53,137 nt of DNA from a virus: the IMG/VR virus record IMGVR_UViG_3300006226_000002; one strand, written 5' to 3'. Made by a program: the position numbers and the translations under genes. Below are positions 3,061-53,137 of the stretch, one piece after another (position 1 is the stretch's first letter; each line of letters opens with the position of its first letter). The notes under the pieces were generated by a model. That model was not told where the DNA came from, did not search any database, and saw only the letters and a list, made by a program, of their open reading frames with translations.

Positions 3061-3090
3061 ATGTTTTATCTTGAAAGGAGAAATCACCAT

Positions 3091-6387: not shown

Positions 6388-6412
6388 CCCCCATAGTGGG
6401 GCGTTATCTTTT
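6387..6412 (+). terminator. GC hairpin GCCCC/GGGGC plus T-run, 15 nt downstream of VR2
   Basis: 5-bp GC stem at 6387-6402 followed by GTTATCTTTTT. Confidence 0.5.
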
Positions 6413-7364: not shown

Positions 7365-8081
7365 ATGACGAAAATAGAACGACAGGAAATGAACAAGCGC
7401 ATTTACTACTTAGGCATATTACTGATTGCATTACTTTTTATCTCATTTTTATCGCTTGTTGTAAAAAGTATCAGTATTTATCAAACGTACAAACAAACCG
7501 AGCCGGCTATATTTACGCCGACCATAGCGGCCATCGAAGCTCCAATCACAACGGAAAAAATAGAGCTTACATCATACGCAGAAGCAAAACATCCATGTTA
7601 TTTGGGTTATCAAAAAGGGTTCGAGCATAGCTCTTTACATTGGGGTGAATGCACACGCTGCGGAGAATTTATTCCACGTTACGGTTTCACCGAAGAAGAG
7701 ATATATTTGCTGGCTCAACTGTTATGCGGTGATGAAAAAATTGATGGAGACGGCGAATATGATTTTGCTTGGTTTCCTGTTTACGGCATGGACATTCGCT
7801 ACGATCAGATTAGCCTTGTATTAAATGTTGTAATGAATCGTGTGCGTTCAGAGCATGGTGGCAACGCAACTGTTACGGACGTAGTATTAGCAAGCGGGCA
7901 ATTTCATGTTTTTCCACGCAACTTAAATACTACTCCCGCAGAGATCGCGATAGAAAAAGTTCGTGAATGGTGTGAAGCTTATGATAGATGGGATCCTGGA
8001 GTGCAGAGCATACCGGAGAACCATCTATATTTTTGCGCCGGGCCAGACCTTACGAACGTTTCAAGGGAACATTGGAGATAA
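7365..8081 (+). CDS. SleB-like cell-wall hydrolase with an N-terminal TM anchor
   Basis: LLAQLLCGDE...VVMNRVRS...VVLASGQFHVF resembles the Hydrolase_2/SleB pattern. TAAGGAGGAAAG RBS. Confidence 0.55.
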   Translation: MTKIERQEMNKRIYYLGILLIALLFISFLSLVVKSISIYQTYKQTEPAIFTPTIAAIEAPITTEKIELTSYAEAKHPCYLGYQKGFEHSSLHWGECTRCGEFIPRYGFTEEEIYLLAQLLCGDEKIDGDGEYDFAWFPVYGMDIRYDQISLVLNVVMNRVRSEHGGNATVTDVVLASGQFHVFPRNLNTTPAEIAIEKVREWCEAYDRWDPGVQSIPENHLYFCAGPDLTNVSREHWR

Positions 8082-9044: not shown

Positions 9045-9705
9045 TAACGATACAAGAGAAACACTGGCCGGCAACTTCCCATCAAACAGCAAAACCTCCA
9101 GGCAGAAATCCGCAAATGCTCCCGAAGATAAGAAACTCCAAAAAGTTGTTACTGGGACCGTAAAAAAACAAAAGCGTGGTTTCGGTAAAAAAATAGCCGA
9201 AACGTTCCTAGAGGACGACACCAAAAGTGTAGGTGAATATATCCTCCATGACGTCTTGATCCCCGCTGCCAAAGCCATGATAAGCGATATGGTTGGAGGA
9301 GGCATTGAGATGCTCCTCTTCGGAGAAAAACGTAATAGAAGCAGCAGTATTCGGCGTGATGGAGGAAGAAGCTATACAAGCTATGGGTCATATTACAAAT
9401 CTACAGACCGTGACAGAGACAGGCGAGACGAACGACGAGACATGTCTAGGACGGCTAGGGCCAGGCATGATTTCGATGAAATCGTACTTGAAACGAGAGG
9501 AGAAGCCGAGGAGGTGCTGTCTCATCTCGTCGACCTCTGTATCGACTATGGAATGGCTTCTGTCGCGGATCTCTACGATTTGGTTGGAATCACTTCACAA
9601 TTTACGGACAACAACTACGGATGGACCGATCTTCGTAACGCGAGTGTGTCCAGAGTCAGAGGTGGATATTTGATTAATCTGCCACGGACGCAGCCGTTGA
9701 ATTAA
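9037..9705 (+). CDS. Hypothetical protein (basic, RD/RS-rich centre)
   Basis: ATG 9037 overlaps the upstream stop. Confidence 0.5.
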   Translation: MSDNDTRETLAGNFPSNSKTSRQKSANAPEDKKLQKVVTGTVKKQKRGFGKKIAETFLEDDTKSVGEYILHDVLIPAAKAMISDMVGGGIEMLLFGEKRNRSSSIRRDGGRSYTSYGSYYKSTDRDRDRRDERRDMSRTARARHDFDEIVLETRGEAEEVLSHLVDLCIDYGMASVADLYDLVGITSQFTDNNYGWTDLRNASVSRVRGGYLINLPRTQPLN

Positions 9706-9715
9706 GGAGAGCGTC

Positions 9716-9889
9716 ATGGAAAGAGAATTCAAGCTTGGAGATAGGATAGTATGTATTGAAAGCGGCGTACAAGGTATTGCTATCAAATTTTACTATCCTA
9801 CGTCCTGCGAAGAACAAACCATGGTAAAAACCGATGATGGGAGACAATACCACGCTCCCACAAGATTATGGAGGATTGAGAATGCGTGA
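9716..9889 (+). CDS. 57-aa protein (below the ORF-track cutoff)
   Basis: ATG follows AAGGAGAG. Overlaps the next start. Confidence 0.4.
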   Translation: MEREFKLGDRIVCIESGVQGIAIKFYYPTSCEEQTMVKTDDGRQYHAPTRLWRIENA

Positions 9890-10124
9890 ATTAAGAATTG
9901 AAATGACATTTGTACATGAGGGGGAAGTTAATACCGGCGATCTTATCAAAAAAGTCAGAGACTTATATTCTGATATTGATTTTGGAGATTTAAGTCATAG
10001 TCAAGATTGTAAATGCTCCTTTAATGTGACGGATGAGGTCTACGAAGACTCAAGCTCGTACAAGATTTTATGTCCTCTTTGTAAAGGTATAATCGGCGGG
10101 AGCATCTTTGTTAAGGAGGATTAA
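9882..10124 (+). CDS. Hypothetical protein with a C-terminal CxxC
   Basis: ATG 9882 is in frame within ORF 9834-10124. Confidence 0.45.
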   Translation: MRELRIEMTFVHEGEVNTGDLIKKVRDLYSDIDFGDLSHSQDCKCSFNVTDEVYEDSSSYKILCPLCKGIIGGSIFVKED

Positions 10125-10691: not shown

Positions 10692-11609
10692 ATGAAATTC
10701 GAAAAAATTGGTAATGCTCTGTCTAAACTAACTGGTCGGACAGGTTTGACTTTGAAAAAACATAGTCCTGAAATCTTGCTTGTCGTGGGGATAACCGGCA
10801 CCGTGGCATCGGCCGTCTTAGCCTGCCGCGCAACGCTAAAATGTGAGGCAGTCCTTGACAATGCGAAAGAAAAATTCGAGAAAATTAAGGAATGCAAACA
10901 GCTTAATAGCGGAATCGTGGAAGACGACCGTGAAGTATATTCCGAGCTTGATTATCGCAAAGACATAACCGTAGCCTATGTGCAAACAACTGTGGATTTC
11001 ATCAAACTATATGGTCCGGCCGTAAGCCTTGGTGTGGCGTCAATTGCATGTATCATCGGTGGTCATGGAATCATGAAAAAGCGCAATGTCGCTCTTATGG
11101 CAGCTTATAAGGCTGTAGAAGAAGGATTTAACGCTTATCGTAAGCGCGTAATCGAGGAGTACGGCGAAGAGAAGGATTACATGTATAAAAACGGACTCAG
11201 AGCCGAAGAAATTATTGATCTTGAAGTTGACGAAAGTGGTAAAGCAAAGAAAGTCAAGAAACAGAAGCTCGTAGAAGATCCGAACGGGCTGAGTGTTTAT
11301 GCCAAATTCTTCGATGAAAGCTGTAGTCAGTGGTCTAAGACACCGGAATATAACATGCTTTTCCTCAAAGCCCAGCAGAATTATTTCAATGATATGCTAA
11401 AAGCCAGAGGGCATGTCTTCTTGAACGAGGTCTATGACGCAATCGGCATTCCCAGAACTCAGGCCGGAGCTGTCGTAGGTTGGGTCTTTGGTGAAGGCGA
11501 TAATTTCGTCGACTTCGGTTTCTCTAATAACGCCGACTTCGTAAACGGCTATGAAAGAAGCGTGCTGCTCGACTTCAACGTTGATGGCGTCATTTATGAC
11601 ATGATTTGA
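10692..11609 (+). CDS. Membrane protein, paralogue B of 3091-3882
   Basis: Shares GVASIACIIGGHGIMKKRNVALMAAY..A..EGF..YR.RV with 3091-3882. Confidence 0.6.
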   Translation: MKFEKIGNALSKLTGRTGLTLKKHSPEILLVVGITGTVASAVLACRATLKCEAVLDNAKEKFEKIKECKQLNSGIVEDDREVYSELDYRKDITVAYVQTTVDFIKLYGPAVSLGVASIACIIGGHGIMKKRNVALMAAYKAVEEGFNAYRKRVIEEYGEEKDYMYKNGLRAEEIIDLEVDESGKAKKVKKQKLVEDPNGLSVYAKFFDESCSQWSKTPEYNMLFLKAQQNYFNDMLKARGHVFLNEVYDAIGIPRTQAGAVVGWVFGEGDNFVDFGFSNNADFVNGYERSVLLDFNVDGVIYDMI

Positions 11610-29603: not shown

Positions 29604-29627
29604 CGATAATTGAAAGGAGTTAATCAA

Positions 29628-31544
29628 ATGCAACCTAAAACAAAATTTGATTTCAGTGGTTACGCAACCAAGATAGGGCTGAAATGCTCTGATGGTCGTA
29701 CAATTCTGAAAGATGCTTTTAAACACAATGACGGTCAGAAAGTCCCTCTTGTTTGGCAGCATCTACATAACGAACCGGCAAATGTCCTTGGTCACGCTAT
29801 TCTGGAGAACAGAGACGACGGTGTTTATGCCTATTGTAAGTTCAACGAAACTGACGCCGCCCAGAATGCAAAGCTCCTTGTCTCCCATGGCGATATTACA
29901 GCGCTTTCTATCTATGCCAATTCTCTTAAGCAGAAAGGACAAGCTGTTATTCATGGCATGATTCGTGAGGTCAGCTTAGTTCTTTCCGGCGCCAATCCTG
30001 GCGCGCTAATTGATAATTTAAGCTTTGCTCATGGAGATGGCATGGAACCGTCCATTGATGAGACAGAGGCAATTATCTACACCGGTCTTACGCTGACTGA
30101 TGGTTCCCTTGAACACATGTCCGATGCGGACGGTCAAAAGATTCTTAACGAAGAGCTTGCAGGCTTAACCGAGGATCAAAAGGCTAGATTGCGGGACAGA
30201 ACCAGATATATGGTTGACGATACTCAAATGGACGTGCTGTTCAATATTATTCGCGCTATGAACGATAGTCAAAAGCTGGCTATTTACAAATCTGTAGCCG
30301 ATAGTATCGTCCAGCATGGCGGTGACGTTGATGCCGCTCTCCAACATGCTAAATATGCAGAGGATGCTACTGTCAAAGACATCTTTAATACTCTGGATGA
30401 CACCCAAAAGATTGTGGTCTATGCCATGATTACTCAGGCTCTCAGTGAGGGCGAAAATCTCGAACATTCTGAAAATGAAGGAGAATTAGTTATGAAAAAC
30501 AACGTGTTTGATAAGTCTACCGAAAAAGAATTCGCCCTCACCCATGATCAAATCGGCGCCATCTTAGTTGATGCTAAGAGATGCGGATCTTTGAAAGATG
30601 CTGTTCTTGCTCATGCTGCAACTTACGGTATCGAAAACATCGATATCCTATTCCCTGATGCTCGTAAAATCAGAGAAACACCAGATCTGATTAAGCGAGA
30701 TGACACATGGGTTGGTCCGTTCTTGTCTGCGGTCTACAAAACCCCGTTCTCCCGCATTAAAAGTCTGGCTGCCGATCTTACCGAAGACGAAGCCCGTGCA
30801 AAAGGCTATATGACTGGTAATCGCAAGAAAGAAGAAGTCTTCCCAGTTATGAAGCGTACTACGACCCCAACCACCGTATACAAGAAACAGAAACTCGATC
30901 GTGATGATGTACTCGACATCACCGATTTCGATGTTGTTGTCTGGCTGCGCGGCGAAATGCGTGTCATGCTTGACGAGGAGCTTGCCCGGGCTGCTTTGAT
31001 CGGCGACGGTCGTGCCGTGGATTCAGAAGATAAGATTAATGAACAGAACATACGTCCTGTTTGGACAGATGATGTACTCTTTGCTCCGAAGGTAACGCTT
31101 CCTTCCGACATTACGACTCTTGATCTAATTGATGAGGTAGTAAAAGCCCGTAAGCTTTACAAGGGTTCTGGCAACCCGAACTTCTACACTACAGAAGACA
31201 CCGTCACCGACATGCTGCTCGTACGCGACTTCAATCAGCGCCGGATTTATCCGACTGTTACCGAGCTGGCTTCGGCTCTGCGCGTGAAAGAGATTATTGC
31301 CGTCGAAGTAATGGAAGAACAGAGTCGCACTCTTCCGAACAGTACCGATGTGGTTACTTTGCAGGGTATTCTGCTCAATCCACGCGATTACGCTATGGGT
31401 GCGGATAAGGGTGGACAAGTTTCGATGTTCGACGACTTTGACATTGACTACAACCAACATAAGTATCTCATTGAGACTCGTTGCTCCGGCGCCTTGACAA
31501 AGCCGAAGTCTGCTGTGGTACTAGAGAAGCGCGCAAACGGCTAA
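29628..31544 (+). CDS. Prohead protease / scaffold-like linker / HK97-fold major capsid fusion protein
   Basis: The N-terminus resembles a prohead serine protease (..VPLVWQH..EVSLVLSGANPGA). The C-terminal half is major-capsid-like. ATG 29628 follows GAAAGGAG. Confidence 0.65.
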   Translation: MQPKTKFDFSGYATKIGLKCSDGRTILKDAFKHNDGQKVPLVWQHLHNEPANVLGHAILENRDDGVYAYCKFNETDAAQNAKLLVSHGDITALSIYANSLKQKGQAVIHGMIREVSLVLSGANPGALIDNLSFAHGDGMEPSIDETEAIIYTGLTLTDGSLEHMSDADGQKILNEELAGLTEDQKARLRDRTRYMVDDTQMDVLFNIIRAMNDSQKLAIYKSVADSIVQHGGDVDAALQHAKYAEDATVKDIFNTLDDTQKIVVYAMITQALSEGENLEHSENEGELVMKNNVFDKSTEKEFALTHDQIGAILVDAKRCGSLKDAVLAHAATYGIENIDILFPDARKIRETPDLIKRDDTWVGPFLSAVYKTPFSRIKSLAADLTEDEARAKGYMTGNRKKEEVFPVMKRTTTPTTVYKKQKLDRDDVLDITDFDVVVWLRGEMRVMLDEELARAALIGDGRAVDSEDKINEQNIRPVWTDDVLFAPKVTLPSDITTLDLIDEVVKARKLYKGSGNPNFYTTEDTVTDMLLVRDFNQRRIYPTVTELASALRVKEIIAVEVMEEQSRTLPNSTDVVTLQGILLNPRDYAMGADKGGQVSMFDDFDIDYNQHKYLIETRCSGALTKPKSAVVLEKRANG

Positions 31545-33361: not shown

Positions 33362-33904
33362 ATGTTAGACATATTTATTCCTGAACAGGAGTTTTGGAAT
33401 GAAGAGAAGCAAGAATTCTTTAAGATCAAAGCCCAAACTCTTCAACTAGAGCATTCTCTCGTATCTCTTTCTAAATGGGAATCAAAGTGGTGCAAGCCTT
33501 TTCTCGGTAAGGAAGACAAAAGCAATGCGGAAATAATCGATTATATTCGCTGTATGACAATTACTCAGAACGTCAAACCGGATGTCTACAGCAATATGCC
33601 ATCCGAGATATTTGAAACAATAAAAAATTACATCGATGCTCCAATGACTGCTACATGGTTTAAAGAAGATCCAATGGCTAAGAAATCAACAGAAGTCATA
33701 ACTGCGGAGATTATCTACTATTGGATGATTGTTCAAAATATACCGATGGAGTGTCAAAAGTGGCATCTAAACAGACTTCTTACTCTGATTCGTGTGTGTG
33801 GCATAAAGAATACCCCTCCTAAGAAGATGAATAGGAAGCAAATGCTCGACAATCGCAAAAATCTTAATGCGAGACGCCGAGCACAAATGAACACGAAAGG
33901 GTGA
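33362..33904 (+). CDS. Gp15-like tail assembly protein
   Basis: LEHSLVSLSKWESKWCKPFL..IDYIRCM recalls the Phage_Gp15 family. Confidence 0.45.
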   Translation: MLDIFIPEQEFWNEEKQEFFKIKAQTLQLEHSLVSLSKWESKWCKPFLGKEDKSNAEIIDYIRCMTITQNVKPDVYSNMPSEIFETIKNYIDAPMTATWFKEDPMAKKSTEVITAEIIYYWMIVQNIPMECQKWHLNRLLTLIRVCGIKNTPPKKMNRKQMLDNRKNLNARRRAQMNTKG

Positions 33905-33912
33905 TCAATATA

Positions 33913-34128
33913 ATGTTCAACAATTACGAAGCACTTAAATGCGATATTTGTAACAAAGCGTTTATGGGTCGTCGTCCTGCTGAGGGCGGCGATATTTTAT
34001 GTCCAGAATGCCTTTCAGCCGATGAGTTACCGGTTGTGATAGATGTGGATAATATTCCTGATTCCGTGCGCAATGAATTTGAAGGAGGTGCGGACGATGG
34101 TGGCGAAGACACGACGAAAAAACCCTGA
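33913..34128 (+). CDS. Small zinc-ribbon protein
   Basis: CDIC...CPEC. Confidence 0.4.
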   Translation: MFNNYEALKCDICNKAFMGRRPAEGGDILCPECLSADELPVVIDVDNIPDSVRNEFEGGADDGGEDTTKKP

Positions 34129-35035
34129 TGTTGAAATAGAGCGTCTGTCTCCTAATCGAACCAAACCGAGGATTAGCGTTATTTCTAGGAACACGCCTCA
34201 CTGTGTAGCTGGAAATCTCACTGTTGAAACAACTCTTGGACTTCAGAGGGTTATGACATTTGACCCTGTAAACGGTATGTCGATGGGTTATGCGATTGGT
34301 ACCGATGGCCGCGCAGGTCTTGGATGTGAAGAAACAAATCGGACATGGACCACTTCAAGTTTTATTAACGATCATCGTTCTATCACCTACGAGATTGCCA
34401 ATAATGGTCCTGCGCCTGATTGGCGTATGAGTGATGCTGCGATCAATAAATGGCTTGAGATGTCTGTGGAACAAGCGCTATTCTATGGCTTCAAGAAAGT
34501 TAACTGGCGGCCGAAACCAGAAAACATTGGTGTTAAAACAATCACTGCGGCTAATCGTGCTCAGAACGAAGCAGCTGTAGAAGCTTGGATCGCAACATGG
34601 GCGAAAGACGATGAGATGATCATTACGCTTCACTGTTGGTATGCCAACAAAGTGTGTCCTGGACCATACTTCATTCGTCAGCTTCCTTGGCTTGTCAGGG
34701 AGATGAACAAGCGTCTTCAGGATCCGAAACGGGTACCCGAGGCGTTCGTAGGAGAAGGCGCTACTCCCCCATCAACCATACCAAAGGAGCCTACTACATC
34801 AGTAACCCCTACGCCAACACCGACTTTTAAAGAATACCAGATTACAATCACGGCTAGCGCTCTTAATGTTCGCAGCAGTCCTGATAGTACCAAATCAAAC
34901 GTTGTGAGGACACTTATCAATGATAAGAATACCTATACAATCATTGAGGAAGCTGATGGACCGGGCGCGAAGAGGTGGGGCCGGCTTAAGTCTGGCATCG
35001 GTTGGATCAGCCTTGACTTTACAACGAAGAAGTAA
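34097..35035 (+). CDS. N-acetylmuramoyl-L-alanine amidase (PGRP/Amidase_2-like) with a C-terminal SH3b-like domain
   Basis: HC.AG, SYEIAN-type core and HCWYANKVCPGPYF. A Thr/Pro-rich linker precedes ALNVRSSPD..GWISLDF. Confidence 0.65.
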   Translation: MVAKTRRKNPDVEIERLSPNRTKPRISVISRNTPHCVAGNLTVETTLGLQRVMTFDPVNGMSMGYAIGTDGRAGLGCEETNRTWTTSSFINDHRSITYEIANNGPAPDWRMSDAAINKWLEMSVEQALFYGFKKVNWRPKPENIGVKTITAANRAQNEAAVEAWIATWAKDDEMIITLHCWYANKVCPGPYFIRQLPWLVREMNKRLQDPKRVPEAFVGEGATPPSTIPKEPTTSVTPTPTPTFKEYQITITASALNVRSSPDSTKSNVVRTLINDKNTYTIIEEADGPGAKRWGRLKSGIGWISLDFTTKK

Positions 35036-35049
35036 GGAGGCTAGTCAAA

Positions 35050-35436
35050 ATGGGAGTAGTTTCTTTCAAACATGGAGGAGATTTCAAAAATCTTGAGAAG
35101 TTTTTCAAAGGTTACAATACGCAAAAAATGATAAGTATTCTTGAACGATATGGTCAAGAAGGAATTCAGGCTCTTGCGTCAGCTACTCCTGTTGATTCTG
35201 GCCTAACAGCGAGCTCCTGGGGATACCGAACGAGTGTCTCCAGGGGTTCTTTTTTTATTATGTGGACTAATAACAACATGACCAGCAACGGGACCCCGCT
35301 TGTCATTCTTTTACAATATGGACATGGAACGAAAAATGGAGGGTTTGTTCAAGGAAAAGAGTTTATCAATTCGGCAATTCAACCAGTTATGGACAAGATT
35401 GCGAATGCTGTATGGCAGGAGGTTAGATCTCTATGA
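35050..35436 (+). CDS. HK97 gp10-like head-tail/tail-completion protein
   Basis: ATPVDSGLTASSW and LLQYGHGT motifs. Confidence 0.45.
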   Translation: MGVVSFKHGGDFKNLEKFFKGYNTQKMISILERYGQEGIQALASATPVDSGLTASSWGYRTSVSRGSFFIMWTNNNMTSNGTPLVILLQYGHGTKNGGFVQGKEFINSAIQPVMDKIANAVWQEVRSL

Positions 35437-38400: not shown

Positions 38401-41400
38401 TAGGTACAGCTCTTAACATTATGGCCAATGCCGTTTCTACTTTTGGTGGCATGAGTCTCGAGGAGCTTGCTAAAGGCCTCATAGCAATGGGCGTAGCTCT
38501 TGCCTCCATAGCAGGGTTTACTCAAATCATTAGTACAGAAAAGATACTTACTACAAGCATTGCTATGATAGGTTTTGGAGCAGCTCTTCTCATTATAGCT
38601 CAGGCTGTAAAAAGCTTTGGAAGCATGTCCTGGGAAGAAATCGCTAAAGGTCTGGTTGCTCTTGCTGGTTCTCTTATCATTATGGCCGTGGCAATGAATG
38701 CTATGACCGGAGGATTGGCTGGTGCTGCGGCAATGCTTGTAATGTCCGCAGCCATTTTAGTCCTAGCGCCAGCGTTAATGATGCTCGGCTCTATGAATCT
38801 AGCAGAAATAGGATTAGCTTTATTGGCTCTGGTTGGTGTGTTTGCGGTTGTCGGAGTTGCAGGTTTGGTTCTAGCACCACTAACTCCTGTGATACTAGGA
38901 TTGGCCGCAGCGATAGCACTGCTTGGCGTTGGTGTCTTTGCAATAGGTGCCGGATTACTTGCATTCTCAGCAGGATTAACCGCCCTAGCAGTAGCCGGAA
39001 CAGCCGGAGCCGCAGCTTTAGTCATTGCCGTAACATCCATTATTAGTTTAATACCCATGGCTGTTGGCGCACTTGGTGAAGGATTATTGATGTTCATTCA
39101 AGTGATAGCCGATGGCACACCAATAATCATGCAAGCTTTGACTCAAATCATCATGGGTATGATTCAGGTTCTTGTCAGCTTAGCCCCTCAACTCGTCGAT
39201 GCGATATTTGTCTTTCTTAACAAGATGCTAGATACAGCTCTGTCCAACGTTCCTAAGATGGTAGATGCAGGATTAAAGTTGTTGACTGGTATATTGGATG
39301 GAATACGTAAAAACATTGGCGATATTGTTGCCACAACATTATTAATCATTGCTGAGTTCTTAAAAGGATTGGCAGCTGGTATCCCAAGTGTTGTTTCGGC
39401 CGGTGTCGATATAATCGTGGCTTTCATCGGAGCAATCTCTAAAGAGAGAGTTAGGCTTATTGATGAAGGATTCAAGATGATAATCGATTTCGTCAATGGT
39501 CTTGCGGATGCAATACGCAATAATACGCCAACGCTTGTAACGGCCTTTGCAAATCTCGCAAGCGCGATGATTGAAGGTCTTGTTGGTGGGTTATTTGCAG
39601 GCATCAAAGGGGCTGTTGACGCTGTAAAGAATCTTGGTGGCGCCATAATCGATGGCTTCAAAGGCGTCCTTGGCATCGCATCGCCATCGAAAGTGTTTGA
39701 GGAATTCGGTGAAAATACCCCAGAGGGTTATATTGTTGGAATAAACAATAAAACCCCTGCTATGGTAGCCGCAGTAACAACAATGGCTTTGATAGCCGTT
39801 AAAGCTACAGAGGAAGCTTTCGGGATAAACGGCAAGAAATCAACAGTGTTTGAGGAATTTGGCGTAACTAATGCTGAGAGCTTCATTAGCGGTCTAACCG
39901 GTATGGGTAACGCAATAAAGGAATCATTTAAGACGGCGTTCGCTGGTGAGGAAAATGAAGAAGTTTTAAAGAGCATGACCGGCCTTATCGATGAAGCGCT
40001 GAAAACGATTGAACAGAGGTTGGAGTCTTATACAGATCTTGCAACTGATCGGTTTAATAAGATATCTACAGAATCTGAAGTCAGCGTTAAAGAGATGATA
40101 GAAAATCTCAAGCACAATCAAAAGGCTATAGCTGAATGGGCAGAAAACATTGCCCTTCTTGCCAGTCGTGGGTTGAACGAAGGCCTTCTTGAAGAACTGC
40201 GTCAAGCTGGTCCTAAGTCTGCCGGAGAAGTAAAGGCTCTTGTGGCGGCTTCGGATAAGGAAATACAAGAGCTTAATACAGTTATGGCAAAAGGCGGCGA
40301 AGTTGCCACTCAAGCATTGGCTGTCTCCGTAGGCTCAGGAGCCCCCCTTCTGGTGGAAGAGGGTAAGAGCCTCGTTGACTCTATTGCTGAAGGGCTTACA
40401 AGCACCTCCAGTGTAAACGACGCAATGGCGATGATGATTGACCATGCTAAGCGCGTTGGATTGCAAGAATTCAATTCTCCAGTGTTCCAAGAAATGGGGA
40501 AAGAAGTACCAGAAAAGGTCGCAAAAGGGATATCCTCTGGCTCTGGTAGCGTCAAATCAGCAATTACTCAAGTGGGTAAGGATGCTGAACCAGCAGCTAA
40601 GGACGCCGGTACTGGTATTGCTAAAGAAATGGAGAGCGGTCTTCAATCTAATTCGGATGCATTCAAACAGACCGGAGATAAATATGGTACTGACTTTGCT
40701 AATGCGGTAAGTAACACTCAGACAGCAGCTAAAACAGCAGGTACTACGGTTACTAATGCAGCAGAACAAGGTCTTAAGTCCAACCAAGCAGTCTACGGTC
40801 AAACAGGCACCAAGTATGGTCAGGATTTCTCCAATGCGCTGTCTAATACCCAAACGATGGCAAGGACAGCCGGCACAACAGTCACTAACGCTGCTGAACA
40901 AGGTCTTAAGTCTAATCAAGCAGTCTACGGTCAAACAGGCACTAAGTATGGTCAAGATTTTGCTAATGCGCTTAGTAATACCCAGACTAAAGCCAAAGAG
41001 GCTGGTATTGCCGTTGCCAAAGCTGCTGAAGCTGGAATCAAGTCGCTGTTAGAGCCTGTTAATGAGTTCGAGAAGCTTGGTGTCGCTGTTGCCGAAGGAT
41101 TCATCAAAGGTATGGAGAGCATGCTTGCAGAGGTTATCAAAGCAGCCAAGAAGCTTGCTAGGTCGGCTAAGGATGCTATAGAGGATGAACTCGACATTAA
41201 TTCTCCTTCTAGAGTTCTCTACGCCGATGGCGTCTATGGTGGATTAGGTTTTGTAAATGGCTTGGCTAGCATGATTGACGATGCGGCCAACATTGGTCGG
41301 AAGATTGGATCCGTCGCTATTGATAGTATCAAAGATGCAATCTCTAAGATTGACGACGTGATCAACTCCGACATCGATCTCGTCCCGACAATCACCCCCG

Positions 41401-43660: not shown

Positions 43661-43727
43661 AACGATATCCCCAAAATACCCCAGGGGAAAAATTCTGAAA
43701 AACAATTCAGAAAGGAGAGATGTCTAG

Positions 43728-44810
43728 ATGGCTCTTACATTCGGTTTCTACAACTCCATCAATGAAGACAGACGCTACGACGCTATTCAAATGTCAAGCA
43801 TATTTGATGGGATCATCAGAGATGGCATATTCATGCATGTCGGTACATCAATGATGGTTCGAGCTAGTAGCGGAATGATTGTAACTATAGGGCTTGGTCG
43901 GGCATGGTTTGATCACACATGGACTCTGAACGATGCATTATATCCCGTGACAATTGATCAATCAGAAGTAGTTCAAGATCGAATAGATACCATTGTATTA
44001 GAAGTTAATGCCACATTGCCAATCCGAGCCAATTCGTACAAGGTAATTAAAGGGACTCCATCAATTAGTCCAGTAAGACCGACATTGATTAAATCACCAT
44101 TGGTTAATCAATACCCTCTTTGCGACATTCGTGTCAACAGAGGAGTAACCGTCATCAACCAAGCCAACATCACGAATCGTGTTGGTACATCAGACTGTCC
44201 ATTTGTCACGGGACCTCTTGAGCTGATGAACATTGATGCTCTAGTGGCGCAATGGGGTGATGAATGGCGACACTTTTACGGTGCTCAAACGGCGTATATT
44301 ACAAACACGACTGCTGAGCTTTTAGCCGCATGGCATGCGTTTTATGCGGAACAAACATCTGAAATAACTGGCGCTAATGAACTGTGGAGAGCTCAATGGG
44401 AGTCCTGGTTCAACTCAGAGACCGGTACTGCTACGGCTGAGATGGCTTTCTGGCGAAATGATCGTGAAGCAACGTTCAATGCATGGTTCGCGGCTCTACA
44501 ATCCATGCTGGATGGCAATGTTGAAGCCAACATGGCTGCGGCGATCTTAGAGCTTCAAAATAGGACCAGTTTGCTTGAGGCATTTAAGGATACTTTGAGT
44601 AATGAATTTGCAGTAGTACATAATGTCGATGATGCTGCTGGTAATGCCATTGTTGATGAGTTAGGTAGGCCATTAGAAGGTAGGATTATCTTCTGCATCA
44701 AACCGTGCAGAGCAGAAACGCAAATGTTCCCTGTCAAAGACGATAGGAGTCGTAGAATTCTTGACAATTTCAGCAACCCAATACAAGGCAGAGTCTATCA
44801 AGCAATCTAA
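43728..44810 (+). CDS. Tail fibre / baseplate upper protein-like
   Basis: Position plus an N-terminus common to Firmicutes phage fibre proteins. Confidence 0.4.
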   Translation: MALTFGFYNSINEDRRYDAIQMSSIFDGIIRDGIFMHVGTSMMVRASSGMIVTIGLGRAWFDHTWTLNDALYPVTIDQSEVVQDRIDTIVLEVNATLPIRANSYKVIKGTPSISPVRPTLIKSPLVNQYPLCDIRVNRGVTVINQANITNRVGTSDCPFVTGPLELMNIDALVAQWGDEWRHFYGAQTAYITNTTAELLAAWHAFYAEQTSEITGANELWRAQWESWFNSETGTATAEMAFWRNDREATFNAWFAALQSMLDGNVEANMAAAILELQNRTSLLEAFKDTLSNEFAVVHNVDDAAGNAIVDELGRPLEGRIIFCIKPCRAETQMFPVKDDRSRRILDNFSNPIQGRVYQAI

Positions 44811-44838
44811 TTTACATGTAATAAAGGGAGGATAAATT

Positions 44839-45678
44839 ATGCGAATTCAAGATTATCCAAGAGTGCAAGTTCTTGATCCGAACAACATCTTTATTATTGA
44901 TGGTCCGGACGGAACAAAAAGCGTTACCTTCAACGACTTGCAAAGAGCATTGAATCCAGAGGTTGCGGCCGCGATAACGGTTGAAATGCATCGCAACACA
45001 TTTAGGGGTAAACATCTCGGGACTGTTGTGTCGACCCTTCAGCGAAATAACATTATTAATGGTACCTTCGAAGATCTATTTGTTGGCGATTATTGGGTTA
45101 TTGGTGGAATAACCTGGCGAATTGTAGACATCAACTACTGGAAAGGTTGCGGCGATACGGAATTCACAGACAACCATCTTGTAATTATGCCTGACGATCA
45201 GCTTTACGCGGCACAGATGAACGCCACAAACATCACAACCGGAGGGTATCCTGGCTCAGCTATGCGGACTGCTAATCTTGCTGCGGCAAGGACGACGATC
45301 CAATCGGCATTCGGTTCCATGCTTAAGACAAAGCGTGCGCTATTTGAGAACGCGGTTACGAACGGAAGACCTTCTGCCGGCGCCTGGGTTGATTCAGACA
45401 TCGATTTACCGAATGAAATCAATATGTATGGAAGCTTCATATTTAGACCCGCAAACGATGGAACAACAATTCCTTATAATTACACCATCGACAAGTCACA
45501 GTTTGCCTTAATGAAACTTGTACCAAGGTTTATCATTACAAGCCCGACAAGGCGTAGCTGGTGGTTAAGGGATGTCGTTTCGGCTGCGTATTTCGCCTAT
45601 GTGCATAGCCTTGGTCATGCGGCTTACGCCGGTGCCTCGACCTCCATTGGAGTCCGTCCTTGCTTTGCTATTGGTTAA
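44839..45678 (+). CDS. DGR variable tail-fibre/receptor-binding protein (C-type-lectin-fold-like); contains VR1
   Basis: The 3' end matches the TR with A-only mismatches. Ends ..WWLRD..GASTSIGVRPCFAIG. Confidence 0.85.
   Translation: MRIQDYPRVQVLDPNNIFIIDGPDGTKSVTFNDLQRALNPEVAAAITVEMHRNTFRGKHLGTVVSTLQRNNIINGTFEDLFVGDYWVIGGITWRIVDINYWKGCGDTEFTDNHLVIMPDDQLYAAQMNATNITTGGYPGSAMRTANLAAARTTIQSAFGSMLKTKRALFENAVTNGRPSAGAWVDSDIDLPNEINMYGSFIFRPANDGTTIPYNYTIDKSQFALMKLVPRFIITSPTRRSWWLRDVVSAAYFAYVHSLGHAAYAGASTSIGVRPCFAIG
45579..45669 (+). repeat. DGR variable repeat 1 (VR1)
   Basis: 91-nt gap-free alignment to TR 46720-46810. All 19 mismatches are at TR adenines. Confidence 0.9.
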
Positions 45679-45681
45679 TCT

Positions 45682-45698
45682 GCGGAGCTTGTCTCCGC
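45682..45698 (+). promoter_or_regulatory. GC hairpin GCGGAG-CTTGT-CTCCGC, 13 nt downstream of VR1
   Basis: 6-bp GC-rich stem with no following T-run. Its position is analogous to DGR target-recognition hairpins. Confidence 0.45.
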
Positions 45699-45759
45699 GA
45701 AAACAAGAAAATTCCCCGGGTGAGATTTTTGGGAAAACAATTTGAAAGGAGATTTCTCG

Positions 45760-46068
45760 ATGGAAAGAAATCATAGCATTACCTTGGCCAACGGAACTGT
45801 TATCGGCAATCTTGGACTTAACGGAAGCAACTATATTTCCGATACCGAAGTCAATCCGGCTATTTTTAGCAAAAAAAACTGCTCGCCGATAGTCTTCAAT
45901 GATGGCGCAACAAATGAGGAGCATCCTCACATGGAGCTTGTCCACATCTTGAAAAATGAGGATGAATGGTGGATCGCGCTTCGTGATATTCCGGCGCCTG
46001 AAATCGCCGAACAAAAACTTCGAGCTGACGTCGATTACATCGCAATGATGACCGATGTCGATCTGTAA
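45760..46068 (+). CDS. Hypothetical tail-associated protein
   Basis: ATG 45760 follows GAAAGGAGA. Confidence 0.5.
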   Translation: MERNHSITLANGTVIGNLGLNGSNYISDTEVNPAIFSKKNCSPIVFNDGATNEEHPHMELVHILKNEDEWWIALRDIPAPEIAEQKLRADVDYIAMMTDVDL

Positions 46069-46083
46069 AGAAGGAGGTAAATC

Positions 46084-46221
46084 ATGAGCGATAGGTATGA
46101 ACTCGTAAAAGGCTACTATGACGATGGTCTTTGGACCGAAGCACAGGTTCGCAACGCCGTCGTAAAAGGATGGATTACGGAAGAGGAGTTTAAAACGATA
46201 ACCGGAAATACATATAGATGA
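46084..46221 (+). CDS. XkdX-family small protein (45 aa, below the ORF-track cutoff)
   Basis: YELVKGYYDDGLWTEAQVRNAVVKGWITEEEFKTITG matches the XkdX pattern. AGGAGG RBS. Confidence 0.6.
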   Translation: MSDRYELVKGYYDDGLWTEAQVRNAVVKGWITEEEFKTITGNTYR

Positions 46222-46712
46222 GTGTTATCGCAAGTAAACGGAATCCTTCAAGATTCGAACCGATTAAACATGCGGTTGACTTGAGGGTTCTATTAACAGC
46301 TCTCCTTGTCCGTAATTTTGGAATCAAAGACCTCGAACATGTAGTCAGAATTAAGTATGCTTTTGGTAAGGATCGAAAAGAAGACTTGCCAAAGTACATA
46401 TTTATCATGGCTAGTTGTAAAAACAGGATTGACATGTTGGCAAGCCATATCGAAGCTAATGTAAGAGCGGCCAACACAATATATCCTGTTTCAATTGGCG
46501 AATGTGATCAGAGAAGAGAGTTTCAGAATGTCGCGATTGTAAATTGCGAACAACTGATATCTGAGCTGCAGTACATCGTTAACATGTTTTGGGTCGATAT
46601 AAACGACTATCGTCAATACGTTGAGGCGATAGACCAGCAAATTGCCCTCATCAAAAAGTGGAGACAATCTGATAATAGGATACGCAAGAAGTTACTTAAG
46701 GGCGGCATCTGA
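46218..46712 (+). CDS. avd: DGR accessory variability determinant (Avd-like helical basic protein)
   Basis: Sits immediately 5' of the TR. ATGA overlap with the XkdX gene. Basic C-terminus KKWRQSDNRIRKKL. Confidence 0.6.
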   Translation: MSVIASKRNPSRFEPIKHAVDLRVLLTALLVRNFGIKDLEHVVRIKYAFGKDRKEDLPKYIFIMASCKNRIDMLASHIEANVRAANTIYPVSIGECDQRREFQNVAIVNCEQLISELQYIVNMFWVDINDYRQYVEAIDQQIALIKKWRQSDNRIRKKLLKGGI

Positions 46713-46719
46713 GTGTGCG

Positions 46720-46810
46720 TTCGGCTACGAATTTCGCCAATGTGAATAACAATGGTAATGCGAATAACAACAGTGCCTCGAACTCCAATGGAGTCCGTAC
46801 TTGATTAGCT
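46720..46810 (+). repeat. DGR template repeat (TR)
   Basis: 28 adenines by my count. Read in the VR frame it encodes SATNFANVNNNGNANNNSASNSNGVRT, with 11 AAY codons. Confidence 0.9.
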
Positions 46811-46922
46811 CTATTACAAATAGGGATAAGGAGATGCCGTCCTTTCCTGCTTTTAGCAAGGATAAATAACAAAGCCGATGCGATTTACTACGGTAACTAT
46901 TGCTATTACGGTGAATAATTTT

Positions 46923-48146
46923 ATGAATTATAAAGCGATGATCTGTGACGCAAACCATTTGCACGATGCATATTTAAAGTCTATACAAAACAGCAAATGG
47001 AAGGAAACGACGCAGAAGTTTATTTTGAACCATCTGCGTCAAATATTTATGTTGCAACAGGAGCTTGAGGAAATGACTTACGAACCTGGGCAAGAAGGGG
47101 CTTTCACTCTTCGTGAGAGGGGCAAAATACGTCCAATCACAAGCCTTCAACCACGAGATAGAATAGTGAGGCATGTTTTATGCGATTATGTTCTTATGCC
47201 TGAAGTAAAGAAGAAGTTGATTTATGACAACGGGTCGTCTCTTCAAGGCAAAGGAATTTCTTTCGCAAATAAGCGTTTCAAGGCACATCTCAGAAAATAT
47301 TTTATGGCGAATGGTACGAATCAAGGCTATATTTTGTTTGGTGATTTCAGCAAGTTCTATGACAACATCCGACATGATATAGCCAAAAACCAAATGTTAG
47401 AACTGGTCGATTATGATCCCTACATCGGTTGGCTTCTTGATCTCATATTTGACAACTTTGAAATTGATGTGTCATACATGTCGGATGAAGAATTTGATGC
47501 CTGCCTTAATAGGAAGTTCGACAAACTTGAGTACCGTGAAATTGATAATGAGAAACTTACTAAAGAAAAATTCATGGAGAAGTCGGTTAATATCGGCGAT
47601 CAAATCTCACAGGCCATAGGCGTCTTATATCCAACTCGGATTGACAACTATGTTAAAACTGTTAGGAGTCAGAAATATTACGGACGTTACATGGATGACT
47701 GGTATCTAATGAGCGCTTCCAAAGAAGAACTCGAAGATATTTACGAGGGTATTAAACTCATTGCCGCTGATCTTGGCATTTTCATTAATGAAAAGAAGAC
47801 ACATATAGTCAAGATGAGCGATACATATAAATATTTACAAATCAAATACTCGTTGACTGAAACCGGAAAAATCATTGAGAGAATAAATCCAAAGCGCATT
47901 ACAATGCTAAGAAGAAAACTCAAAAAACTTAAACCTCAGATCGACGATGGAACAATAGATTACGAAAATGTTGAAGGTATGTTTCGTGGTTGGATGGGTA
48001 GTTATTACAAACTCATGTCTAACGATCAGAGACATGGTCTTCTAACTCTTTTCGAAGAGCTTTATTCAAAAACCATTAAGGTAGTCCAAGGTAAACTTGT
48101 TATCACCGATAAATCTCAAGTGGATTTATCATCAGAGAGACGATAA
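46923..48146 (+). CDS. DGR reverse transcriptase
   Basis: YMDD at 47688-47699 and IGDQISQ at 47592-47612 ([LIV]GxxxSQ signature). The ATG 46923 start is preferred over 46878. Confidence 0.85.
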   Translation: MNYKAMICDANHLHDAYLKSIQNSKWKETTQKFILNHLRQIFMLQQELEEMTYEPGQEGAFTLRERGKIRPITSLQPRDRIVRHVLCDYVLMPEVKKKLIYDNGSSLQGKGISFANKRFKAHLRKYFMANGTNQGYILFGDFSKFYDNIRHDIAKNQMLELVDYDPYIGWLLDLIFDNFEIDVSYMSDEEFDACLNRKFDKLEYREIDNEKLTKEKFMEKSVNIGDQISQAIGVLYPTRIDNYVKTVRSQKYYGRYMDDWYLMSASKEELEDIYEGIKLIAADLGIFINEKKTHIVKMSDTYKYLQIKYSLTETGKIIERINPKRITMLRRKLKKLKPQIDDGTIDYENVEGMFRGWMGSYYKLMSNDQRHGLLTLFEELYSKTIKVVQGKLVITDKSQVDLSSERR

Positions 48147-48218
48147 CGCTTGGAAGCCCGGTGCGTACAGTTGAAGTTAGCATAATTCTCCGTCATATTT
48201 ATAAGGAGGGCTTCGTAA

Positions 48219-48557
48219 ATGGTATCAATGGAAATTTGGCAGTATATTATAACAATTGTCACAGCCGTTATGGCTTCTAGCGGATTCTGGGCAATTATAC
48301 AAAAGCGCATGGACCGCAAAGATGACAAGACAAAGCTTCTTCTAGGTATATGCCATGATAGGATATTCTACCTTGGTATGTTGTACATCGAAAGAGGCTA
48401 CGTAACCCGTGACGAGCTTACAAATATTCAGAAGTATCTCTCTGGACCGTATTTCAAGCTTGGGGGAAATGGAGCGGTTAAGCGAGTAATGGAAGATGTC
48501 GAGAAGCTACCTATACGCCATATGAAAGATTTAGTTTACAAGGAGGTGAAACAATGA
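48219..48557 (+). CDS. Membrane protein with one N-terminal TM helix (holin-like or lysis accessory)
   Basis: AAGGAGGG RBS. Contains IITIVTAVMASSGFWAII. Confidence 0.35.
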   Translation: MVSMEIWQYIITIVTAVMASSGFWAIIQKRMDRKDDKTKLLLGICHDRIFYLGMLYIERGYVTRDELTNIQKYLSGPYFKLGGNGAVKRVMEDVEKLPIRHMKDLVYKEVKQ

Positions 48558-48841
48558 GTGAATTCTTTACATGGGTCACGTTAGCCACATTTGGAGGGGC
48601 AAGTATTGGTACGGCTATTATTACGCAGTTTATCAAGGAATGGTCATTTATTAACAGAATACCTACCCAGATTTTGTCATACTTTATCGCACTTATTATT
48701 TTGCTAGGAGCGAATTACGCAATTGGAGCTATTTCTGGATGGGCTGAATTTGGTATTATTCCTCTCAACGCTATTCTAGTTTCACTAGCTGCTAATGGTG
48801 AGTTTGCGGCAGTGAAGAGATTATTTCGACCGATAAAATGA
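48554..48841 (+). CDS. Holin, putative (multi-TM)
   Basis: Three hydrophobic segments and a basic C-terminus. ATGA overlap with the upstream ORF. Confidence 0.5.
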   Translation: MSEFFTWVTLATFGGASIGTAIITQFIKEWSFINRIPTQILSYFIALIILLGANYAIGAISGWAEFGIIPLNAILVSLAANGEFAAVKRLFRPIK

Positions 48842-48869
48842 TATATACTTTGCAAAGGAGATGTTATCA

Positions 48870-49121
48870 ATGTATAATATGGATGCGACGAATCTTATTT
48901 ATCAAAATGTTGCGGGCGAAGCTGATGCAATGGCAGGCTATGAGGAACTAAAGAAGGTTTTAGACGAAGATGACGTTAAGATAGTTGATGGTATTATTGC
49001 TGAGGAAACAAAACATTCTTTATTACTTCTTGCTATGGCCAAGAGGTATAATAATGTTACGGCTGACAATGATGGTTCAAAGGAAGCCCTTAATGAATTA
49101 TCAAACGGAGTGCAATCGTAA
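48870..49121 (+). CDS. Small helical protein (ferritin/rubrerythrin-like motif E..AI.GY..EE.KH)
   Basis: ATG 48870 lies 9 nt after AAAGGAG. Confidence 0.35.
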   Translation: MYNMDATNLIYQNVAGEADAMAGYEELKKVLDEDDVKIVDGIIAEETKHSLLLLAMAKRYNNVTADNDGSKEALNELSNGVQS

Positions 49122-49371
49122 GCAGTAAAACACGGCGAATAAAAGTGTAGAAATGTTATTTGCTTCTCGACTATTCCTACACATTAGAACTTAAACGTTG
49201 ATATTTCGAAGTTTTGTGTTTCTATTATAGAAACATCCTTGAATATCAATGACATCTAAATACTGTTAAATCAAGGTTTTTAGTGGCGGTTAGGAGTGGC
49301 TTAAAGTAGGAAAATGTATGTAAATCATATATTATTCCTACACCACTCCTATATCGCTATTCCTACACAGA
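49122..49371. promoter_or_regulatory. Putative attP / integrase arm-site region
   Basis: TCCTACAC-type sites at 49145 (reverse-complement variant), 49175, 49336 and 49361. A 17-bp palindrome GTTTCTAT-T-ATAGAAAC at 49218-49234. Confidence 0.45.
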
Positions 49372-50604
49372 CTATAATATTTTTTCGATTTCTTCTTTGA
49401 GCCATTGAAACTCTCTTTGCGTGTAAACTTTCTCCGTGATGTCCGAAATCTTATGACCAACGAGATATTTGATTGCGTATTCATCAATCTTATATTTCTT
49501 AGCCATTGTTACGAAATGCTTGCGCCCGTCGTGTGGTCTATGATCTGGATTCAGTTTAAGCTCATCTCGGATTCTGCTAAATCCTTTTTGATATCGTCCG
49601 TAAGTTAACATGATGTTTTTTCTTCTATTATCGGGGTCAACATAATTAAGCAGATAATCACTTTCAAGTCGCTTTGCCTCTTCATATTTTCGGATTACTA
49701 AGGATTGTATTCTTGAATGAATCGGAACTATCCGATCTTCTCCAGCATCGGTCTTCATTCCACCCCTAAACGTCATATTTTCAAGATCAACATTTTTGAG
49801 TTCAATCAATCCGAGTTCCTGAGGTCTCCATCCAGAATAGCACTGTATGAGTAAAACATCAACACATATTTTATCATTAACATGCTTCCATAGCAGTTGC
49901 ATCTCTTCTTCCGTAAATGGGATATGTTCTTTCTTCACAGTGATAATTTCTTTGATGACGTCTTCTGAGAGATTGAAACTCCTCGAGTAATTCCGATCCA
50001 CAAGCTCATATTCCAAGGCATAGTCAAGCATGAGGTTGAACAGGGATTTGATTTTATTTTTCGTGGAGGCGCTGGGATTCTGTGTCTTTCCTTTGATAAA
50101 AGCGACACCCTCTTCCATGCAGCCCTTCACATGGCGAGCTCGTATATCCATAACTCTCATGTCGTATACAGACGAGCAATAGATCCATGCTGACTTAACT
50201 CCTCTTCCCTCATCTGACAAAGTACTAAAGTATTCGTCCGTCCACTTCTCATAGAGCTCTTTTACCGTGATGGAGGGCTCCAGGTCATACGGGTTTTTGT
50301 TATATTCCACCAGAGCGGTGTAGGCATCATTATACGTGGGAAAATACGATTCAGGTTTAAGAGGCTTGCAAATAGGCCTACCAGTAGAAGTCTTACCGAC
50401 CGTAACCATTGCCCGAAAGGGGTTTCTAAGGTTACGGTTTTTAATTTCGCTTATTTGACCGAATCCATTTGGTAAACGTCTACGCTTGTTTGATTGTCGA
50501 AGCTTTCTTGGTTTCGCGTTTGGTTGAATCGGATATCCGCAGTGAGGACAAGATATTGCCTTATCACTTGCTTGTAGCTCACACTCCGGGCATTTTATTA
50601 ACAT
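49372..50604 (-). CDS. int: Tyrosine integrase with an N-terminal zinc ribbon
   Basis: CPEC..CPHC N-terminus. SGWRPQEL, HDGRKHF (HxxR) and LVGH...VYTQ catalytic pattern. Confidence 0.8.
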   Translation of the reverse strand: MLIKCPECELQASDKAISCPHCGYPIQPNAKPRKLRQSNKRRRLPNGFGQISEIKNRNLRNPFRAMVTVGKTSTGRPICKPLKPESYFPTYNDAYTALVEYNKNPYDLEPSITVKELYEKWTDEYFSTLSDEGRGVKSAWIYCSSVYDMRVMDIRARHVKGCMEEGVAFIKGKTQNPSASTKNKIKSLFNLMLDYALEYELVDRNYSRSFNLSEDVIKEIITVKKEHIPFTEEEMQLLWKHVNDKICVDVLLIQCYSGWRPQELGLIELKNVDLENMTFRGGMKTDAGEDRIVPIHSRIQSLVIRKYEEAKRLESDYLLNYVDPDNRRKNIMLTYGRYQKGFSRIRDELKLNPDHRPHDGRKHFVTMAKKYKIDEYAIKYLVGHKISDITEKVYTQREFQWLKEEIEKIL

Positions 50605-52456: not shown

Positions 52457-53137
52457 GTGGGGCTTTTAGGGAAAGTTTTAGAATTTGTATTAGCGGATCA
52501 AATCTCAGACGCCGTAGATATTCCTATTAAGGCTTTAGATAAAGCTACCAAGGTGCTAGAGTCAAAAAGTGAAAAAGGGAAGCAAAAACTTTTCGATATT
52601 CCACCAGGCACTGGTATTTTAGCTTTTAATGAACATAGATATATGTGGAACGAAACATATGATGTCTATGATGAAAACAGAGAGGTCAAGTACACAATAA
52701 AAGGCGAAATGACTTCTATTAAACGACATATGCATGTGTACGATTCATATGGAAATAAACTTGGAATGGTAAAGGAAAAACTAATCGCTTGGCGTCTCCC
52801 CCTTACTTTAGGAGCTAATCCAATCGATTTTGAAATCGAAGTAAATGGAAGATCACTCGGTAAAGTTAAATCGAGATGGGCTCTCGGTAAGCAGAAATAT
52901 GAAGTTAATTATAACGGTTGGCACATAGAGGGCGATCTTTTAGGAGCAAAATATAAAATACTTAACGGTTCGGAAGAAATAGCGCAAGTGTCGTTGAAGT
53001 TTTTCAATTGGGGAGGATATGTTGCGACTTATCCTAATCTACAAAATGAAATTCCGATATTAATGCTTGTACTAGCGATTGAAGCTGCAAATGCGCCAAA
53101 AAGATCTAAAAAAATGAGACACACCATTCATCGTAAA
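52457..53137 (+). CDS. LURP-one-related / YxjI-like (tubby/scramblase-fold) protein; continues to base 145 across the junction
   Basis: GTG follows GAGGGAGG. No in-frame stop before the window end. A repeated beta-strand-like pattern is followed by a hydrophobic C-terminal helix IPILMLVLAIEAA. Confidence 0.55.
   Translation, partial: MGLLGKVLEFVLADQISDAVDIPIKALDKATKVLESKSEKGKQKLFDIPPGTGILAFNEHRYMWNETYDVYDENREVKYTIKGEMTSIKRHMHVYDSYGNKLGMVKEKLIAWRLPLTLGANPIDFEIEVNGRSLGKVKSRWALGKQKYEVNYNGWHIEGDLLGAKYKILNGSEEIAQVSLKFFNWGGYVATYPNLQNEIPILMLVLAIEAANAPKRSKKMRHTIHRK
53011..53137. repeat. Terminal direct repeat, right copy, identical to 1-127
   Basis: Base-for-base identity with 1-127. Confidence 0.9.

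Follow-up and report, generated by a model that had tools for sequence, protein, structure and literature searches.

Diversity-generating retroelements (DGRs) in temperate gut phages, including those with pairs of a large and a small DUF6273 target, are already published. The Faecalibacterium prophages Lelie and CP11 possess one DGR with variable regions (VRs) in a large and a small DUF6273 target, and Lelie, Lagaffe_CP and CP11 (two VRs) showed no read-level variation in culture (PMC11792537). The two-target DGRs of nd4 and nd12 also involve DUF6273, a domain which in gut phages was modelled as C-type-lectin-like, with the VR as a surface beta-hairpin (PMC10743442); the role of the second target was called unclear in both works (PMC11792537, PMC10743442). 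More broadly, DGRs commonly have non-adjacent targets within prophages, and a GC-rich inverted repeat located after the VR only has been described as the distinction between donor and recipient in BPP-1 and about one third of DGRs (PMC5758913). Here we analyze a stretch of 53,137 nucleotides (hereafter, the window) from the IMG/VR virus record IMGVR_UViG_3300006226_000002, which we consider highly likely to carry a complete, apparently functional DGR, belonging to a temperate phage of siphovirus type whose genome is a 53.0-kb circle and whose host is probably one of the gut Clostridia. One template repeat (TR) serves two recipients, VR1 in the last tail-module protein and VR2 in a stand-alone DUF6273 protein. 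The parts of the system are situated at the following positions of the window:

5638-6387, + strand: target gene 2, small DUF6273 protein (249 aa) among early/accessory genes, with VR2 at its C-terminus
6285-6371, + strand: VR2; core 6285-6363, residues 216-242 of the 249 of target 2
6387-6402, + strand: VR2 hairpin GCCCC-catagt-GGGGC, 23 nt after the GTCCGT of VR2
44839-45678, + strand: target gene 1 (279 aa), last tail-module gene, with a DUF6273-like C-terminal domain bearing VR1
45579-45669, + strand: VR1; core 45579-45657, residues 247-273 of the 279 of target 1
45682-45698, + strand: VR1 hairpin GCGGAG-cttgt-CTCCGC, 24 nt after the GTCCGT of VR1
45760-46068, + strand: orf102 (102 aa), conserved, between target 1 and xkdX
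46084-46221, + strand: xkdX-family gene (45 aa), Pfam Phage_XkdX 3.2e-17, phrog_134
46218-46712, + strand: putative Avd-family protein (164 aa), phrog_3206 "Avd protein of DGR", 1.2e-9
46720-46810, + strand: TR, intergenic; core 46720-46798; no hairpin 3′ of it
46811-46922, + strand: spacer between TR and reverse transcriptase (112 nt), its sequence strongly conserved among relatives
46923-48146, + strand: predicted DGR reverse transcriptase (RT, 407 aa); the longest open reading frame (ORF) starts at 46878

Comparison with described systems
The cassette resembles that of BPP-1 in its target with a C-terminal VR, its avd gene ending just before the TR, its spacer at the same position (144 nt in BPP-1, 112 nt here) and its RT. 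Furthermore, the Avd and RT of both phages fall in the same PHROGs, both RTs share the IGxxxSQ and YMDD motifs, the TR/VR differences are A-only, and a GC-rich inverted repeat follows the VR and not the TR (PMC5758913). On the other hand, the RT studied here is only 23-26% identical across comparisons to the BPP-1 enzyme (bRT) and contains an insertion of about 30-35 aa, the Avd proteins show no detectable similarity when compared directly, and the target is a DUF6273 protein without sequence or Foldseek match to Mtd. In addition, orf102 and xkdX lie between target and avd, there is a second target away from the cassette, and the phage appears to be siphovirus-type with a Clostridia, Gram-positive-type host, whereas BPP-1 is a podovirus.

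Regarding the published DUF6273 systems, Lelie and CP11 share with the present phage the VR at the C-terminus of DUF6273 and gut Clostridia hosts, but a nucleotide search of the phage collection yielded no similarity, and the RTs of Faecalibacterium phages are less than about 30% identical to this one. The DGRs of nd4 and nd12 (PMC10743442) are likewise two-target systems with the VR on beta-strands, as in our model of target 2; they differ in the VR of target 1 (“tentaclin”), which is near the N-terminus, in both targets being inside the cassette, in belonging to myoviruses and in an RT about 31% identical to ours. The closest cultured relative is Fontainebleau, a phage of Acutalibacter muris, with an RT 43% identical. 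Gene order is the same from the tail module through target, avd-like gene, TR and RT to the lysis genes. Of its two VRs, one is adjacent and the other remote, the latter in a small DUF6273 gene lying apart from the structural module. Its genome is of 39 kb and lacks xkdX and orf102 between target and avd.

Template repeat and variable regions
An initial annotation of this DNA had proposed a complete DGR, with a 91-nt ungapped alignment between the TR and the 3′ end of the last tail gene. The pair 46720-46810/45579-45669 was recovered by a repeat finder (79% identity), and base-by-base comparison agreed with that annotation at each of its 19 mismatch coordinates, all of them TR adenines. The TR contains 28 A in 91 nt, and the hypergeometric P for 19 of 19 mismatches on A is 3.8e-13. 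The DGR finder, which searched both strands for repeat pairs with mismatches confined to one template base, taking each of the four bases in turn, returned pairs of this size for adenine only, none comparable being found for C, G or T; its sole non-DGR result was a 5-mismatch tandem repeat in the tape-measure gene. Written as a degenerate pattern (N at each A), the TR matched three places in the whole window, and none in 100 shuffles.

VR2, which had not been described in the initial annotation, is a second recipient of the same TR. Over 89 nt, 17 of its 17 mismatches are at TR adenines and none at the 61 non-A positions, its homology to the TR stopping at about 6372. The adenine restriction also holds within the cores, with 16/16 mismatches for VR1 (P = 9e-11) and 15/15 for VR2 (P = 6e-10); non-adenine TR/VR mismatches, named at the outset as evidence that would speak against a DGR, number zero in both VRs. 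On the circular genome, VR2 is situated 12.6 kb downstream of the TR (via the lysis and integrase region) or 40.4 kb upstream. VR1 and VR2 are the same at just 12 of the 25 adenine columns and differ at the other 13, and were therefore diversified independently. Both sit at the C-terminal ends of their targets.

Read in the VR frame, the TR translates as SATNFANVNNNGNANNNSASNSNGVRT with 11 AAY codons, exactly as had been reported. Its core includes 25 adenines, 11 AAY codons and 13 variable codons, which could give rise to up to 1.4e14 protein variants; this AAY-rich TR cannot yield stop codons, none being reachable from the core. Although all 19 VR1 mismatches are at A, as claimed, the last three (46799, 46804 and 46807) are more likely fixed differences between the initiation of mutagenic homing site (IMH) of the VR and its counterpart in the TR (IMH*). 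The 3′ ends of TR (ACTTGATTAGCT) and VR (CCTTGCTT...) differ at positions fixed in the four VRs of two phages, namely the present one and a sister phage (69-kb contig); at columns 46799 and 46804, 4/4 of these VRs have C instead of A, and the ACT TGA of the TR (Thr-stop) stands against CCT TGC (Pro-Cys) in the VR, this Pro being invariant across the target family. The three positions are most simply read as fixed and 3′ of the mutagenesis boundary, and the diversified core would then be 46720-46798. The IMH probably corresponds to the 3′ part of VR1 (approximately 45649-45669), and the IMH* to the 3′ end of the TR (approximately 46790-46810), with an in-frame TGA.

A GC-rich hairpin follows nine of nine VRs in six phages and none of the TRs, the stem sequences being unrelated. 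The VR1 hairpin, identical and at equal distance in the sister phage, is a probable DGR target-recognition inverted repeat, and was not scored as a terminator because no T-run is found 3′ of it; the VR2 hairpin could also be a terminator, since a T-run comes after it. Scans for sigma-70 promoters and terminators gave nothing above shuffled expectation, except for the VR2 hairpin, which scored terminator-like.

Related loci
Relatives of the RT with 47-62% identity are found in IMG/VR contigs and in metagenome-assembled genomes (MAGs) of Oscillospiraceae, Eubacteriales and Lachnospiraceae. In four of seven related loci (L004, L005, L007 and L008) the TR lies just 5′ of the RT, with a strictly A-only VR 0.8-1.2 kb upstream; the remaining three have a VR at the same offset which fails only the strict A-only rule. 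Gene order is unchanged in the sister phage, which likewise possesses two VRs; these differ from its TR at 17 and 14 positions, all of them A, and the second VR is placed in a small DUF6273 gene among early genes, 18.7 kb downstream. The TRs of the window and of the sister phage differ at the non-A columns 46 and 79, and at these columns both VRs carry the base of their own TR; sequence has therefore passed from TR to VR in each of the two lineages after they split.

In Fontainebleau (ON453893.1, locus L014) the TR is found at 35105-35192 and the VRs at 34390-34477, in the adjacent target gene (33554-34489), and at 9800-9887, in a small DUF6273 gene (9330-9899) between the DNA polymerase and helicase genes. 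The adjacent VR has 2-3 non-A mismatches and the remote one is clean. The RT, unlike the DGR, is annotated in the GenBank record, where a “hypothetical protein” coding sequence (35085-35339) runs across the TR. At least three phages have the small target outside the structural module.

Locus L008 (Lachnospiraceae MAG JAETOL010000003.1, 6001-7165) displays a split RT, with ORFs of 278 and 102 aa, and 15 A-only mismatches; the DGR may have been inactivated recently, or the assembly may be in error. When the cassette was compared with GenBank phages by megablast, there was no match; the VR-degenerate pattern was found 0 times in IMG/VR and 0 times in JGI metagenomes, and an exact-protein look-up of the RT returned the source contig only.

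Reverse transcriptase and accessory genes
The YMDD (47688-47699) and IGDQISQ (47592-47612) motifs of the RT are located as first annotated. The protein matches RVT_1 (2.5e-16) and phrog_1423 (3.6e-54), where bRT is also found (4e-125); its best PDB match is 8ub7, confirmed as the bRT of BPP-1, and BLASTP aligned both enzymes end to end (E = 7e-15, 23% identity). The insertion with respect to bRT (…DYDPYIGWLLDLIFDNFEIDVSYMSDEEF…) is encoded at approximately 47385-47490 (residues ~155-190), 5′ of the IGxxxSQ motif, and is kept in all the relatives aligned. These matches assign the RT to the DGR class, as far as profiles and motifs can tell. Translation probably starts at 46923 rather than at 46878, the first ATG of the ORF, because a conserved ribosome-binding-site-like ACGGTGAATAATT followed by ATG is seen at the former in the alignment with relatives.

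The Avd-like ORF proposed just before the TR is consistent with its position and its phrog_3206 match, although the gap to the TR is of 7 nt and not 8; the Avd of BPP-1 falls in the same PHROG (2.1e-28), and orthologs occur at the same position in all the related loci. The assignment of xkdX is borne out by its Pfam match. The order target-xkdX-avd-TR-RT was found for these parts, but orf102 additionally lies between target and xkdX; the sister phage, L003, L005, L007 and L008 all have a 102-aa gene at this place, and orf102 has no match in Pfam, PHROG, NCBIfam or PADLOC. The spacer is probably part of the DGR RNA; neither it nor the region 44000-49500 has a real match to an Rfam family. Altogether, the A-only repeats, the RT, the Avd-family ORF and the layout support the interpretation of the locus as a complete DGR.

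Targets
Target 1 follows the tape-measure gene, a Sipho_tail gene, Sipho_Gp37 and phrog_1220; it matches phrog_21980, its N-terminal part is conserved, and the C-terminal sequence given in the initial annotation is correct. Its DUF6273 match is limited to the C-terminus and is below threshold (E = 0.0022), while that of target 2 is above it (4.7e-8). Homologs number 3368 for the target 1 family and 1506 for the target 2 family, and hhalign between both families found their C-terminal ~140 residues to be homologous (96.6%). Target 2 overlaps at its start the upstream ORF, an early gene, by 8 nt; its neighbors are N6_Mtase, DUF6353 and Hydrolase_2 genes, and no signal peptide or membrane segment was recognized by eye.

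The AlphaFold2 (AF2) model of target 2 (132 homologs) is confident over residues 75-249, the DUF6273 domain, and places the VR residues on beta-strands 220-224, 230-234 and 238-240, with a predicted local distance difference test (pLDDT) of 84-92. Its sole significant Foldseek match in the PDB is 9qa6, the IgA peptidase of T. ramosa, with a DUF6273 N-terminal domain; many C-type-lectin domains appear among the matches, all of them non-significant (E 1-2), and the target 2 family profile had no match in PDB sequences. Against BFVD, 25 phage DUF6273 proteins matched significantly, some of them annotated as tail-fibre or receptor-binding, and DUF1566 matched weakly (E = 0.026). The C-type-lectin fold suggested at first for the target is only indirectly supported, the assignment coming from the published models (PMC10743442). 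Judging from position and fold, target 1 would be a distal tail protein with a varied binding surface, through which host range or adhesion might be switched.

Proposed mechanism and alternative explanations
If the system works as in BPP-1, a transcript spanning the end of avd together with TR and spacer would be reverse-transcribed by an RT-Avd complex; template adenines would be copied unfaithfully, and the cDNA would replace the homologous VR. The GTCCGT/CCTTGCTT end (IMH) and the GC-rich hairpin about 24 nt downstream would mark the VR as recipient, the TR, without hairpin and with a different 3′ end, staying as the invariant donor. The diversified residues would make up a beta-hairpin at the surface of a binding domain of lectin-like type, with a change of ligand or receptor specificity as the likely benefit.

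The RT might alternatively belong to another class (retron, group II or DRT/Abi defence) and the 91-nt repeat be a plain duplication of a DUF6273 C-terminus, a reading that we regard as scarcely credible. It can point to weak, partial NCBIfam and PADLOC matches to group II, retron and DRT models, but all these scores are far below the curated cut-offs (52.7 bits vs. 300 for the group II intron model TIGR04416, 27.7 vs. 235 for Retron St85, and 18-33 vs. 200-550 for Drt2, Drt3a, Drt4 and Drt5, Drt2 giving 33 vs. 390), so that the assignment to group II or retron clades, which the initial annotation had named as contrary evidence, did not materialize. PADLOC gives the generic RT model plus the weak partial DRT matches, and the bRT control behaves likewise, more strongly. 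Moreover, no group II intron or retron RNA was detected by Rfam in 44000-49500, the [LIV]GxxxSQ motif is present, and A-only mismatches in two independent copies would each arise by chance with P < 1e-9. Retron, group II and DRT identities were rejected on the sub-cut-off scores and the bRT control, and a chance or paralogous origin of the repeats on the A-only statistics and the lineage-specific TR bases. It is also very improbable that VR1 is the sole true recipient and VR2 a paralogous C-terminal segment resembling the TR by common ancestry. VR2 is indeed away from the cassette and outside the structural module, but its 17 mismatches are all at A with none at the 61 non-A positions, it carries the TR bases at columns 46 and 79, as the VR2 of the sister phage does for its own TR, and a hairpin of its own follows it at an equal distance; besides, the remote VR of Fontainebleau is cleaner than the adjacent one, and non-adjacent prophage targets are common for DGRs (PMC5758913).

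A DGR by descent that is now silent, whose VR/TR differences are fossils of past mutagenesis, appears unlikely, yet it deserves more weight than the former readings. Lelie, Lagaffe_CP and CP11 lacked read-level variation in culture, and L008 keeps a clean A-only VR next to a split RT, so that clean VRs outlive RT loss for a while. Nevertheless, the present phage retains the full set of RT, Avd, TR, spacer and hairpins in intact and conserved form, neither VR has any non-A mismatch, while the adjacent VR of Fontainebleau already has 2-3, and the VRs carry the lineage-specific bases of their own TR. Several results weigh against a complete and functional DGR as we read it. No near-identical copies of the RT, of both targets or of the VR pattern were found in the phage, IMG/VR, JGI metagenome and protein-cluster collections. 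The Avd ORF has no match in Pfam, NCBIfam or PDB sequences, hhalign of eight Avd orthologs against the BPP-1 Avd gave no similarity, and its identity, to which we attach moderate confidence, comes from a single PHROG profile. The consensus fold of the spacer has 30 pairs with one compensatory change only, and the IMH boundary is inferred from the aligned sequences. On the structural side, the AF2 model of target 1 (36 homologs) has a mean pLDDT of 66.7, below 50 in the VR region, its best Foldseek match in the PDB (E = 2.3) being meaningless on such a poor model, and no solved DGR variable protein, Mtd and TvpA included, was matched by Foldseek.

Significance
As the two-target design is already published, this DGR is a good example rather than a discovery, and the current understanding of DGRs is unchanged. 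It provides a clean case of a phage DGR with two targets in a closed genome, in which TR, VR core, IMH, hairpin, spacer and RT start are explicitly delimited. It also links an uncultured phage family to a cultured pair, Acutalibacter muris and Fontainebleau, whose DGR is unannotated in GenBank and which is usable for experiments on the small, non-adjacent DUF6273 target. The function of this early-region target is the point with some reach. We consider it an outside possibility that target 2 is not a virion receptor-binding protein but an early-expressed, cytoplasmic diversified binder, for instance of a variable host factor or defence protein. This suggestion stems from the lack of signal peptide or membrane segment by eye and the 8-nt overlap with an early gene, as well as from the Fontainebleau ortholog between DNA polymerase and helicase genes and from at least three phages having the small target outside the structural module; if true, one TR would diversify two functionally unrelated proteins.

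Genome and other features
The ends of the window are an exact 127-nt direct repeat (1-127 and 53011-53137), and the source contig, ena:ERZ27257348:k141_4382122 (53151 bp), exceeds the window by 14 nt; repeat and extra nucleotides together equal a k = 141 MEGAHIT overlap, and the genome is therefore circular and complete. It is a circle of 53,010 bp, with the window rotated relative to the record. The phage is taken as temperate because of its integrase, with the neighboring DUF6431 gene; in the sister phage, the integrase is followed by DUF6431 too. The virus is probably siphovirus-type and its host a Clostridia (Oscillospiraceae-like) gut bacterium. Other features of the window are:

3061-3882 and 10692-11609: DUF6353 paralogues in the early region (E = 1e-81 and 1e-82)
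7365-8081: Hydrolase_2 (SleB-like) gene near target 2, below the Pfam cut-off
29610-31544: Peptidase_S78 (Caudovirus prohead protease) and Phage_capsid in a single 644-aa ORF, a protease-major capsid fusion
34043-35035: 330-aa gene immediately preceding the tape-measure region, with an Amidase_2 match below the Pfam cut-off
49372-50604, - strand: tyrosine recombinase/integrase with an N-terminal CxxC...CxxC zinc-ribbon-like segment
50731-51051: DUF6431 gene adjoining the integrase

No endolysin is recognizable after the small holin-like genes 3′ of the RT (48219-49121); cell-wall hydrolase signatures occur only elsewhere, namely the Hydrolase_2 and Amidase_2 matches, both below the Pfam cut-off. 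The small target of the sister phage also adjoins Hydrolase_2, and one of the two DUF6353 copies is near target 2, a DUF6353 gene of the sister phage being directly 5′ of the small target. A 200-aa phage ORF (194-796) has a PASTA domain match (7e-6), a domain usual in penicillin-binding proteins and Ser/Thr kinases. The tape-measure gene (2082 aa) contains a 132-nt tandem duplication of 75% identity (40680-40943), from which the 5-mismatch result of the DGR finder came. Finally, a 35-nt direct repeat of 74% identity (AAAATnCCCCnGGG...AAAACAATT) is found at 43673-43707 and 45708-45742, both intergenic, one copy immediately preceding the gene at 43728 and the other orf102; a regulatory or ribosome-binding-site-context element repeated in the late operon is a possible explanation, and a similar string occurs 3′ of the VR1 hairpin of the sister phage.

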